DNA from: Syntrophales bacterium | GTDB taxonomy: Bacteria > Desulfobacterota > Syntrophia > Syntrophales > UBA2210 | Assembly (NCBI GenBank): GCA_963664485.1 | Contig: OY761459.1 | Coordinates: forward strand, 155,098 to 219,097 | DNA: 64,000 bases | Reading direction: 5' to 3' | Shown here: positions 24,277 through 26,702 of the stretch, in pieces | How the letters are laid out: each line of letters opens with the position of its first letter | Position numbering within the stretch: position 1 is the stretch's first letter | Program-made: the position numbers and the translations under genes | Notes under the pieces: model-generated | Databases searched by the model: none | Told to the model about the DNA's origin: nothing | Seen by the model: the letters and a program-made list of their open reading frames with translations, nothing else

Positions 24277-25089
24277 TCAGAATCCTCGCCCGGCACCGCC
24301 GCCGCCGCTCATGCCGCCGCCGAAACCGCCGAAACCGCCGCCGAAACCGCCGCCGAAACCACCGCCCCCTCTGCCGCCCATCATCAGCATAAGGATAATA
24401 AAGGGGAGCATCCTTCTTCCCTGCCTGGTACCGAGCAGGAGAGATAAAACAAGAAAAAGTATTATAAGGGAGAAGATATTAACGCCTTTCTGCTCTTTCG
24501 GCACCGGCTGTTGACGTGTCTGAGGCACGCCGGTCAGCGAAACCCCGGCATCTTTGGCTATTACCGACGACACGGCAGCCATCGCACCCGCCAATCCTTT
24601 GTCATAATCCCCCTTGCTGAGATAAGAAACCACGTACCGGTCGAGTATGTTTCCGACGAGACCGTCCGGCAGTATGCCTTCGACTCCGTATCCCGTTTCA
24701 ATCCTGATCCTTCTCTCTTTGACGGCAAGAAATATCAGGACCCCCTTGTCCTCGCCTTTTTTGCCTATGCCCCATGTTTCGTACAATCTGTTCGCGTAGT
24801 CGTCGGGACTGTTATCCCCGATCTCCTTCATGGTAACCACTACTACCGAAGTTCCCGTCTTTTCAAGAACCTCCCGTGCCAGGGATTCCATAGATTGCGA
24901 GTATCTTTGCGAGATAACCCCCGCGAAATCGTTGACTGCGCCTCCCATCGGCCGCGGGAAATCGCCTCCATACACACAGGTGGCGATCAGATATATCATC
25001 AAAGCCACAATGAATGAACCAACTGTTTTCTTATTGAATCTCCCCGCAACAAGTTGCGGGGAATCTCCGACTGCTAAGGAATTTTTCAT
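24277..25089 (-). CDS. TPM-domain protein (YgcG-like) with Gly-rich tail
   Basis: VNDFAGVI, WGIG..G.D.GVLI, IETGYG.EG.LPD, FGGFGGG.SGGGGAG; N-terminus supplied by an inserted element. Confidence 0.9.
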   Translation of the reverse strand: MKNSLAVGDSPQLVAGRFNKKTVGSFIVALMIYLIATCVYGGDFPRPMGGAVNDFAGVISQRYSQSMESLAREVLEKTGTSVVVVTMKEIGDNSPDDYANRLYETWGIGKKGEDKGVLIFLAVKERRIRIETGYGVEGILPDGLVGNILDRYVVSYLSKGDYDKGLAGAMAAVSSVIAKDAGVSLTGVPQTRQQPVPKEQKGVNIFSLIILFLVLSLLLGTRQGRRMLPFIILMLMMGGRGGGGFGGGFGGGFGGFGGGMSGGGGAGRGF

Positions 25090-25150
25090 TTTTTATTCGC
25101 TCGCTACCCCCGCCGCAAGCAGCGGGGAGTGCATTCGCTGTTCAGTTTAA
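25034..25150. mobile_element. ~117-bp non-autonomous element with two CCCCGC..GCGGGG hairpins
   Basis: Hairpins at 25041-25062 and ~25107-25127, ends TTGAA...TTTAA; internally deleted relative at 13824-13851. Confidence 0.65.
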
Positions 25151-25330
25151 ACCAGAATCGTCCTCCACGGGATCTCGAAAACACATACAAGAAGATTACG
25201 CACTTTTCAACCGCCTTTTCATCCCATCCGGCGGGTTATTACTGCCACGAACCCGGCATGCCGGGATAACCGGGCGTTTCAATTTCCGCATCTTGCCACA
25301 GTTGGATATAACAAAGCAACCCCTTTCACT

Positions 25331-25762
25331 TTATTACTCCGGCAACAATATGACAGCAGTTCCTTGGACCCTTGAACCCTTGGCCCCTTGAACCCTTGGA
25401 CCCTTGAACCCTTGGACCCTTGAACCCCCGGCCCCTTGAACCCTTGAACCCTGCCTTTAACCTCTTTAATTACCGTAAGTAATAATCAAAGATTCAACAT
25501 TAAACATTCAACATTGTACTCAAGTTCCTTCGTCATTCCGGTGAAAACCGGAATCCAGAAACTGTCTGGTAACACTGGATTCCGTGTCTTGCTTCGCGTG
25601 CACGGAATGACGACTTTGACATATATTGTTACCGGAGTAATTATGACAGCAGTTCCTTGAACCCTTGGCCCCTTGAACCCTTGAACCCTTAGAGCCCTTG
25701 AACCCTGCCTTTAGCCTCTCTAATTACCGTAAGTAATAATCAAAGATTCAACATTAAACATT
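25331..25762. repeat. Composite repeat island (TIR-bounded octamer modules, family A units, heptamers), inverted relative to the 12.7/19.1/34.4 kb copies
   Basis: ttattactccggcaac (25331)...ttaccgtaagtaataa (25485); second module ends ~25740. Confidence 0.92.
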
Positions 25763-25772
25763 GAGAATTGTC

Positions 25773-25801
25773 TTGACTTTTTCTCATGCCAAACCTATTT
25801 T
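25773..25801 (+). promoter_or_regulatory. Putative sigma70 promoter
   Basis: TTGACT-17 nt-TATTTT, 47 nt upstream of ATG 25849. Confidence 0.5.
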
Positions 25802-25848
25802 AATTACTCTTTTTCAGGACCGTATCTTACGGGAGCCGATCGCAGGGA

Positions 25849-26205
25849 ATGAAAATATATTTAAACAATCTACTGAAAACGCTGTTGATTGTGTTACTGT
25901 TTTTGTTCGTCGCGGGGAATCTTCCGCTTACTGCCCGAAACGCCGAGGCCGGATGAAGAGACCCGAGGGTGACCGTGCATGTCACCCCAGAGGGAAGTGG
26001 AACCGTCGGAGTAAACGGCGTCGAATATAAATCTCCGGTGAGAGTGCCGGACAACTCAACAGTATCGTTCAGGGCGAAAGCCGCTAAGGGATACAGATTC
26101 GTATGCTGGGACGAGGCATTGTCGGGGGCCAAGAACCCGACCACATATCACGTTACCTGCAATACAAAGGTCACCGCCGTCTTTGAGCCCGTTCCGCAAC
26201 AGTAA
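25849..26205 (+). CDS. Candidate secreted selenoprotein with InlB B-repeat-like (Flg_new_2-type) domain; UGA at codon 36
   Basis: MKIYLNNLLKTLLIVLLFLFVAGNLPLTARNAEAG-(TGA 25954)-RDPRVTVHVTPEGSGTV...A..GYRF..W...LSG..NP......N..VTAVF, all in one frame. Confidence 0.78.
25954..25987 (+). promoter_or_regulatory. SECIS-like hairpin
   Basis: TGA + 10 nt + GGGTGAC-cgtgcat-GTCACCC (perfect 7-bp stem, G in loop). Confidence 0.7.
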
Positions 26206-26428
26206 AAGCAGGGCAACACGGCCGAAAGCAGGCAGACGCTTCGCGACAATAATAGGAAAAAATTTCATTTCCCGGCTCGCCCGGCAAAAAGCCCCGGCTC
26301 TGAAATGTTGCTTCGTGAACCGGCCCGGGCATTAAACACAAGTTGTCAGTGCCGGTTTTTGCGCTTGACATGTCGTGCAAAGTGGTATAGGAACTGCGCT
26401 TCGAAATTTTACAAGGGAGGAACTATTT

Positions 26429-26692
26429 TTGGCAAACAACAAATCCGCGGAAAAAAGGGCCCGGCAGAGCGAAAAACGGAGAATGAGAAACACCTCTGCG
26501 AGGACACGTGTAAAAACGGGTGTTAAGGCTGTGCTTGCTTCTGTAGAGGAAAAAGATGCGGAAAAAGCACGCAAGGTCCTGATCGACACAACGAAAATAA
26601 TAGATAAGGCTTCGGCCAGAGGGATCTTTCATAAGAACACGGCATCCCGTAAAATATCGAGATTGACAAAGAAAGTAAACGCCCTCGGATAG
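26429..26692 (+). CDS. rpsT: 30S ribosomal protein S20
   Basis: MANNKSAEKRARQSEKRR.RN...KT..K...IDKA...GI.HKNTASRK.SRL; TTG start after GGAGG. Confidence 0.96.
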   Translation: MANNKSAEKRARQSEKRRMRNTSARTRVKTGVKAVLASVEEKDAEKARKVLIDTTKIIDKASARGIFHKNTASRKISRLTKKVNALG

Positions 26693-26702
26693 GCGTTCGG
26701 CA

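Follow-up and report, generated by a model that had tools for sequence, protein, structure and literature searches.

In a 64,000-nucleotide (nt) stretch of DNA from a Syntrophales bacterium (assembly GCA_963664485.1, contig OY761459.1, positions 155,098–219,097 of the forward strand; hereafter the window, in whose own numbering positions are given), we examined a gene at 25849–26205 that appears to be interrupted by a TGA stop codon. Judging from its relatives, the apparent stop at 25954–56 almost certainly encodes selenocysteine (Sec, written U in protein sequences), and 25849–26205 is very probably a real selenoprotein gene. Taken as a whole, the observations are best explained by one gene for a small exported selenoprotein, a reading to which we give a probability of roughly 0.88. 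The selenoprotein interpretation put forward in an initial annotation of this DNA is thus supported by homologues with TGA or Cys at the same codon, by selection on the hairpin that follows it, and by the recoding machinery of the genome, which consists of one contig of 2.59 Mb and is 97.9% complete.

According to this interpretation, the UGA at codon 36 would be read as Sec by the ribosome, with SelB and its Sec-tRNA(Sec) bound to a hairpin that starts 11 nt downstream and is embedded in the codons of what would be the first β-strand (V-T-V-H-V-T). The 35-residue leader would pass the protein to the secretory (Sec) translocon, where a cut by signal peptidase I would leave Sec as residue 1 or 2. 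The mature part would be a single InlB-type B-repeat, and in relatives the same Sec-capped repeat would head larger surface proteins. Most likely, the selenol would act jointly with the Cys of the module, either in a selenenylsulfide tying the N-terminus to the domain or in a two-ligand selenolate/thiolate site. The actual insertion of Sec, the export, the cleavage site, the Sec–Cys contact and the purpose of the arrangement are what we infer from the comparisons below.

A reading frame with an internal TGA

Read from ATG 25849 with TGA as U, the frame encodes 118 residues (MKIYLNN...NAEAG-U36-RDPRVTVHVTP...PQQ) and ends with TAA at 26203–05; the in-frame TGA stands immediately 3′ of Gly35, and 82 further codons follow up to the TAA. 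An ordinary list of open reading frames (ORFs) holds just the distal ORF of 78 amino acids (aa) at 25969..26205, starting at GTG 25969. The initial annotation had described exactly this situation, namely a track showing only the 78-aa ORF, a frame of 118 aa from ATG 25849, and a leader ending in AEA followed by Gly, TGA 25954–56 and a B-repeat, and all of it was borne out by translation and by a Pfam match (PF18998). A sequencing error at the TGA, which that annotation had named as fatal to its proposal, is spoken against by contigs of three other studies, which cover 25954–56 with no difference. The features are as follows.

25849..25953, + strand: signal-peptide-like leader, codons 1–35 (MKIYLNNLLKTLLIVLLFLFVAGNLPLTARNAEAG), AEA preceding Gly35 (from translation)
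25954..25956, + strand: TGA, almost certainly Sec, residue 36 (TGA conserved in relatives, Cys-aligned homologues, tRNA-Sec)
25967..25987, + strand: hairpin resembling a selenocysteine insertion sequence (SECIS), 7 bp, loop CGUGCAU (stem 25967–73 with 25981–87, loop 25974–80)
25969..26193, + strand: InlB-type B-repeat domain, PF18998, residues 41–115 (Pfam match, AlphaFold2 model)
26104..26106, + strand: Cys86 (RFVCW), second Cys (alignment of 27 Sec modules)
26158..26160, + strand: Cys104 (VTCN), proposed partner of Sec36 (Cys aligned here in 16 of 27 Sec modules)
26203..26205, + strand: TAA stop of the 118-codon gene (from translation)

The same codon is TGA in distant relatives

The layout of leader, TGA, hairpin and B-repeat was found at no fewer than 47 loci in total, which belong to the window's own order, to records titled Desulfobacteraceae, Desulfococcaceae and Deltaproteobacteria, and to Dehalococcoidales. 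When the read-through protein was compared with 61 genomes (G000 and 60 relatives), 12 matches were obtained, ten of which, in ten genomes, contain exactly one in-frame TGA, located each time where the leader meets the domain; of the remaining two, one is an internal repeat and one a weak match that contains TAA. When the order's 339 genomes were searched with a profile of these ten N-termini, 16 matches, spread over 14 genomes, covered the leader and contained a single TGA each. The only leader-covering match without TGA among the 339 genomes (L035) is an ordinary lipoprotein (LLSC, then a Gly linker), and about 85 further matches are internal repeats without stops. One more carrier, in another family, came from a 401-genome sample of the phylum, and in a 151-genome sample of Dehalococcoidales a single TGA was present in 18 matches that cover the leader, 17 of which had not been seen before.

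Pattern searches led to the same layout. A DNA pattern (CTGA, 12–15 nt, core hairpin) scanned over one genome per species gave, among the matches listed, 81 matches in 80 loci. Of these listed matches, 39 have a gap that keeps the frame (12 or 15 nt) and 42 a gap that breaks it (13 or 14 nt); leader, TGA and B-repeat were present at 16 of the former and at none of the latter. Ten of those 16 loci were new, the new ones coming from Desulfobacteraceae, Desulfococcaceae, Deltaproteobacteria and Dehalococcoidales metagenome-assembled genome records. A protein pattern that assumed neither TGA nor hairpin retrieved one metagenomic relative, which carries both. The tBLASTn-type comparison proposed in the initial annotation therefore came out in favour of recoding, as homologues keep TGA (at least 47 loci) or Cys (four loci) at the aligned codon.

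Some genomes carry several Sec-capped genes, often side by side: G019 and G829 have three each, two lie 2.9 kb apart at L106, and two lie 2.2 kb apart at L137, with a third elsewhere in the same genome (G730).

Cysteine forms and the distribution of SelA

In the Dehalococcoidales sample, nine leader-covering matches have no stop. Four of them are true Cys forms with CC or CPC (L213, two genes of L197, and L200), with the junctions ...LFTAKPVEAG-C-P-C..., ...VASAG-CPC..., ...AGAG-CC... and ...VGAG-CC.... Another two have one Cys right after the leader (L214 and L215, the latter in a lipobox-like LVGC), and three have neither Cys nor Sec at that place. By sequence, there is plain orthology between Cys-form leaders and the leaders of Sec forms such as LFTAKPVEAG-U-GGGG. 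Over 234 aa, a Sec form (L210) and a Cys form (L213) share 47% identity (E 2e-62), and U35 aligns with C35. The hairpin is present in none of the four Cys forms, and SelA was found in none of the three Cys-form genomes vs six of the seven TGA-form genomes tested in Dehalococcoidales. This amounts to a natural experiment, with Sec and the hairpin where SelA was found, and CC or CPC without the hairpin where it was not. In the window's order, SelA occurs in 310 of the 339 genomes and in all 14 carriers; because it is so common there, its presence in the carriers is a necessary condition for recoding rather than a discriminating test.

Further searches for Cys forms returned nothing of use. A metagenome pattern with Cys in place of U ([KEG][AG][GAN]CG[GN]P[PA]LT) matched 38 stretches, none of them a relative. 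A protein search with alignment A1 matched 48,330 proteins at E≤0.001, and the best 150 of these, proteins of 646–7,018 residues with 7–55 matched stretches, gave no help toward Cys forms. A search for longer homologous proteins ended likewise.

In genome G829 (contig C18, 12298–14601), selA lies some 850 nt from one of the three Sec modules.

The hairpin as a SECIS element under selection

The hairpin, GGGTGAC (25967–73), CGTGCAT (25974–80) and GTCACCC (25981–87), starts at the 11th nt after the UGA, as the initial annotation had it; its apical loop begins 17 nt past the UGA, and the isolated hairpin has a folding energy of −10.3 kcal/mol. This locus holds the single occurrence of the motif STGACCGTGNNNGTCAS in the 2.59-Mb genome, and Rfam gave no match within window positions 25000–26700. 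The rules for bacterial SECIS (bSECIS) elements, as stated in a 2026 review (PMC13188914), call for a loop of 3–9 nt with G within its first two nucleotides, a stem of 4–16 bp, a distance of 16–37 nt from the UGA and an energy of at most −7.5 kcal/mol. Applied with a script of our own instead of bSECISearch, these rules are satisfied by the window hairpin (7-bp stem, loop CGUGCAU, 17 nt, −10.3 kcal/mol), in line with the SECIS-like spacing and the loop G that had been noticed earlier. They are also satisfied by 32 of 37 Sec loci that came from protein-level searches; among the controls, none of the four Cys forms passed, and the pass rate was about 3% both for ordinary TGA stops (15 of 472) and for random positions in the genome (61 of 2000).

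The five core pairs are formed in all 16 Sec modules compared vs none of 19 ordinary B-repeat first strands, which form three pairs at most; one of these ordinary repeats is the second in a protein in which a Sec module comes first. Codons and pairing were analysed over 18 loci that had been found without reference to the hairpin. In all 18, the third positions of the T42, V43 and V45 codons, which lie in the hairpin, are invariant (entropy 0); seven other equally conserved four-fold codons outside the hairpin have entropies of 1.09–1.97 bits. Pairing is preserved in 89.7% of cells vs 24–54% after sliding one arm. Substitutions in the stem that keep pairing comprise a change of one pair from C-G to G-C in five loci and U·G at each of two pairs in one locus. 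At three Dehalococcoidales loci (L198, L201 and L204), CUG became CUA and GUC became GUU, both synonymously, so that G-C was replaced by A-U. At the level of sequence comparison, these patterns show the hairpin to be under selection as RNA.

A sub-family with a Gly/Ser linker between U and the domain has a different hairpin, GGUCGUC-AGGUCC-GACGACC, at an equal distance from the UGA, and the Cys form is without it. One codon in one family would thus be served by two different SECIS designs.

A strain variant in run X4 has two changes, one in the 3′ arm (25984 A>G, Thr to Ala, with the pair retained as U·G) and one in the loop (25978 C>A, His to Asn). The public protein P0002 appears to be a shortened ORF call of a variant of this kind.

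The genome has the recoding machinery and otherwise uses TGA as a stop

A tRNA-Sec with anticodon TCA (75.4 bits) is present in the window's genome, together with SelA, SelB and SelD. ARAGORN identified 48 tRNAs in the complete contig, with anticodon TCA in tRNA-Sec alone and GCA in tRNA-Cys, so the search for selA, selB, selC and selD or for a UGA-reading tRNA-Cys that the initial annotation had called for returned the complete Sec set and no other UGA-reading tRNA. TGA terminates 257 of 734 long open frames and is therefore an ordinary stop in this genome. As positive controls we used ordinary selenoproteins of the same genome, two FdhA genes and SelD (C1:1285046–1288111, 720116–720850 and 1589716–1590636), each of which has one in-frame TGA followed by a hairpin, with the loops GGC, GGUCU and CGGGU.

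A B-repeat that heads varied proteins

Residues 41–115 match PF18998 (Flg_new_2, 'Divergent InlB B-repeat') with an E value of 1.5e-9 and 38.1 bits against a cut-off of 23.6. An AlphaFold2 model of 25945–26202 is all-β with six strands (mean predicted local distance difference test score, pLDDT, of 86) and places Sec four residues ahead of strand 1 and Cys104 two residues ahead of the last strand. In a search of representative chains, the best fold matches were adhesin, MucBP, CnaB and B-repeat domains with Z scores of 4.8–6.3, among them the InlB B-repeat 2y5p (Z 4.8, root-mean-square deviation 3.0, 63 aligned residues; below the tool's trust level). Since all Z scores are below 8, these matches may reflect a common arrangement only and are too low to carry weight. 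A sequence search of the PDB (query A2) gave no match at E≤0.01.

A bare single repeat is found in the window protein and in one genome of the same genus. Elsewhere, the Sec module also heads proteins with PKD domains, a 'choice-of-anchor U' domain and a C-terminal GGGGCFIST motif, proteins with DUF5719-like repeats, and, in Dehalococcoidales, proteins with more B-repeats and a C-terminal membrane helix. In the members scanned with Pfam, Flg_new_2 and Flg_new are the only adhesin-repeat families; the other matches are PKD/Ig-type families, Rhodanese, DUF5719 and CARDB. A generalization that we would put at even odds is a 'selenocysteine cap', a portable N-terminal module of signal peptide, Sec, B-repeat and one partner Cys heading varied surface proteins. 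Such a cap would be distributed over strict anaerobes of at least three orders and two phyla. If it exists, its selenol might be a reduction-resistant Se–S lock or a handle for metals, sulfur or cross-linking, selenium would be used in a structural or extracellular rather than a catalytic way, and SECIS elements would have been reinvented at least twice in the family, in the first β-strand and in the Gly/Ser linker.

Many members (L013, L015, L018, L020, L051, L052, L127 and L137) have C-termini made of a Gly run, CF[IT][SR][ST] and 3–6 residues before the stop, with no membrane helix. In the window's genome, two other secreted proteins of 403 and 390 codons (C1, near 510514 on the + strand and near 1630896 on the − strand) carry ordinary, Sec-free leaders and terminate in ...GGGGSGCFISTVSIFK and ...GGGGGGCFISTVSIFK. 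This ending may be an unrecognised short C-terminal motif for sorting or attachment.

The partner cysteine and the role of the selenol

Each of the 27 Sec modules contains a Cys, situated in VTC before the last strand (16), in mid-domain (8), next to U (2; UC and UEC) or elsewhere (1), and ordinary repeats have Asn or Asp at the position of Cys104. One Cys is present in 22 of 25 distinct Sec-linked domains vs 0, 2 or 4 in 46 of 48 ordinary repeats; of the two 'ordinary' repeats with a single Cys, one turned out to be a Sec module that had been missed. Cys forms have the partner adjacent (CC or CPC) and a domain without Cys. The odd number of Cys in Sec modules as opposed to the even number in ordinary repeats points to a Sec–Cys pair, which lends indirect support to the pairing of Sec36 with the module Cys, for which we propose Cys104. 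The initial annotation had argued that the first and last strands of a B-repeat are neighbours, an arrangement that could bring Sec and the Cys of VTCN together.

A structural bridge is only one conceivable outcome of such a pair. Sec and Cys might instead make the tip of a surface protein chemically reactive, as a redox-active selenenylsulfide or as a site that binds a soft metal or sulfane sulfur; none of the observations directly contradicts this. Forms with adjacent residues (UC, UEC, UGC, CC and CPC) do exist, and UGC, CU and CxU mark redox or metal-binding selenoproteins in the table of PMC13188914 and in Haft and Gwadz. Moreover, a rhodanese domain directly follows the Sec-capped repeat in six proteins (L017, L127, L106, L137 and L066, with L125 recognized by eye), the active-site motif CRSGxR being kept in L017 and L127 and its Cys lost in the others. 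The domains downstream of the module are, however, very varied (PKD, DUF5719-like, more B-repeats), and a general structural or anchoring role therefore fits better than any one chemistry; we regard a reactive site as a serious but rather unlikely alternative.

The leader and the mature N-terminus

By our own crude measure, the window leader has two K/R before a hydrophobic core with a 12-aa Kyte–Doolittle mean of 3.24, and 26 of the 27 listed leaders have 2–5 K/R, a core of 1.87–3.51 and a c-region of small residues; the exception, L079, was analysed as a sequence of 12 aa only. Between the hydrophobic core and U lies a polar c-region of 5–12 residues, and AxA-type motifs read from the alignments put U at +1 or +2. 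From these features, the leader would direct the protein through the Sec translocon and signal peptidase I probably cuts after AEA or AEAG, which would make Sec residue 2 or 1 of the mature protein.

Sec also follows G, A or S at −1 directly after the leader, as the lipid-attached Cys of a lipoprotein would, and true B-repeat lipoproteins with a Cys a few residues before the first strand exist (L035 with LLSC, L215 with LVGC-GPTTY-TLTVNVSP, and P0276). It is nonetheless improbable that Sec replaces the lipobox Cys as the lipid-attachment residue of a selenium-anchored lipoprotein. The window protein has E at −3 (AEAG-U), and in many members E, K, Q or G stands there (as in AEAG, AKAG and VQAA), the frequent E, K or Q being a departure from the lipobox consensus, and the pattern [LVI][ASTVI][GAS]C after a short hydrophobic core is absent from the window protein. 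The polar c-region of the above length is typical of signal peptidase I sites, and many members already possess a C-terminal membrane helix or another C-terminal motif. Thus, the family is like lipoproteins in that small residues end the leader and a chalcogen residue comes next, and differs from them at −3 of the lipobox and in its long c-region.

Other readings of the TGA codon

An in-frame GTG lies within the hairpin in all type-1 loci, and translational coupling via hairpins is known. One could therefore imagine two cistrons, a leader peptide that ends at the TGA and a domain that starts at the GTG, with the hairpin having a regulatory or coupling role rather than that of a SECIS. Leader and domain are, however, always in the same frame, and the signal-peptidase motif abuts the TGA. 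The Cys forms are one open frame with Cys at that very codon, the Sec or Cys state tracks the presence of SelA, and the hairpin of the Gly/Ser-linker sub-family lies far upstream of the first strand and offers no such start. We consider two cistrons very unlikely.

Equally slight is the chance that the UGA is decoded as Cys, Trp or Gly, rather than Sec, by a near-cognate or special tRNA. Cys is aligned in four homologues, and UGA-reading tRNA-Cys variants have been reported in deltaproteobacteria. Against this stand the 48 tRNAs of the genome, with anticodon TCA in tRNA-Sec only and GCA in tRNA-Cys, the normal use of TGA as a stop elsewhere in the genome, and a hairpin that fits the bSECIS rules as given in PMC13188914 and resembles the FdhA and SelD hairpins of the same genome.

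Finally, a plain nonsense mutation or assembly error, with the gene dead or only the 78-aa ORF from GTG 25969 made, would agree with public gene calls that stop or start at the TGA and yet has next to no probability, as the same codon is TGA in at least 47 loci of at least three orders, the TGA is unchanged in the contigs of three other studies with the frame open on both sides, and the distal ORF alone would have no signal peptide whereas its relatives have PKD, C-terminal anchors and other extracellular-type domains.

What weighs against the selenoprotein reading

Several observations run counter to the selenoprotein reading or to parts of it. A conserved peptide motif (L/V-T-V-x-V-S/T-P) is encoded where the hairpin lies, whose conservation is therefore partly owed to the protein, and three of the seven stem pairs never vary within the window's order. 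The covariation that the initial annotation had proposed to check was found in part: compensatory changes are seen, as described above, but the number of pairs changed on both sides in the window's order (2) was reached in 192 of 500 shuffles and so does not exceed them. The hairpin is also unremarkable by energy alone, because a 71-nt stretch folds no better than its shuffles (z −0.46, with 60 of 200 shuffles folding equally well). Five of the 37 Sec loci fail the energy rule of the bSECIS set and are missed at −6.0 kcal/mol too; three of the five were inspected and have the same hairpin with 5 bp only and −4.1 to −4.6 kcal/mol. SelA was not found in one TGA-form genome (G818, which may be incomplete), and Cys forms come from Dehalococcoidales only, with none among the 339 genomes of the window's order. 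The window protein itself has two Cys, C104 and C86, the latter left undiscussed by the initial annotation; no Cys stands at the position of Cys86 in the other 26 aligned modules, and its presence breaks the one-Cys rule. Lastly, adjacent CC, CPC, UC and UGC are no less compatible with a redox or metal site than with a structural bridge.

Relation to known selenoproteins and surface repeats

The recoding mechanism is the ordinary bacterial one. [quoted passage not shown] According to that review, a redox function and a thioredoxin-like fold are shared by most of the prokaryotic selenoproteins that have been characterised. In contrast to these, with Sec in a thioredoxin-like redox motif, Sec would here be the first or second mature residue of an exported adhesin-like repeat, and the fold of the family is not a known catalytic one. 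If Sec is fixed at the mature N-terminus of these adhesin-like surface proteins, selenium would be put to an uncommon use.

On the protein side, the family resembles InlB B-repeats (Flg_new_2), given the PF18998 match above cut-off, the all-β model and the presence of 2y5p among the low-scoring fold matches. Ordinary Flg_new_2 repeats differ in being internal, without UGA, with 0, 2 or 4 Cys, and with first-strand codons that form no hairpin. Sec-Gly-Cys at two Dehalococcoidales loci (L203 and L209) recalls the UGC motif of the 'DUF1573 domain-containing protein' family (PF07610), by its name the nearest entry of the catalogue and represented here by its row in the table of PMC13188914, and that of other UGC selenoproteins in the table; unlike the DUF1573 family, none of 21 scanned members matches PF07610. 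A possible working analogy, in which the N-terminus is tied to the end of a β-domain, is offered by the cross-links of Gram-positive pilins and adhesins (the isopeptide of CnaB; disulfide, isopeptide and ester in 5u6f). The corresponding fold matches have Z scores of 5.6 (8bdw) and 6.0 (5u6f), all below 8, and, unlike the amide or ester links of CnaB and pilins, the bond proposed here would be one of Se–S chemistry.

The family appears to be undescribed, as judged against NCBIfam and Table 1 of PMC13188914, with the families of Haft and Tolstoy 2025 compared as table rows. It is not among the 119 families and subfamilies of that table, in the part of the review compared, and NCBIfam holds no model for it, which agrees with the earlier remark that it is not a classic selenoprotein family. 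Passages of BSepDB (PMC13326102) gave no hit for a repeat, signal peptide or PF18998, and a literature search gave nothing relevant that links selenocysteine with B-repeats, Flg_new, choice-of-anchor or surface proteins.

Public ORF calls for several members (P0002, P0281, P0289, P0291, P0293 and P0295) start just after the TGA, and the only two with names (P0281 and P0293) are called 'hypothetical protein'. Calls that cut the proteins at the UGA remove their signal peptides, which means that Syntrophales-like, Desulfobacterales and Dehalococcoidales genomes have mis-annotated surface proteomes. Selenoproteome counts would accordingly be too low for these Sec-rich groups.

Surroundings of the loci

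Across 26 loci, only close relatives have gene neighbours in common, and the largest neighbour groups comprise 3–4 loci. The neighbour groups that were inspected are antisense shadow ORFs, except for a regulator of the Rrf2 type (by sequence) that lies on the same strand about 550–650 nt upstream at two loci of different genera (L016 and L017). The neighbours in the window, as read from their translations, are putatively S20, LeuRS, a LemA-like and a TPM-like protein. Directly upstream of the gene, 25341–25771 contains two copies of a unit of about 250 nt with runs of an 8-nt tandem repeat (CCCTTGRA), and the two units share an 86-nt tail with 91% identity. Contig depth piles up at 25700–25762 in run X1, and in two other metagenomes there is a 70-letter replacement at 25764/25766. 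The repeat looks like a multi-copy intergenic element.

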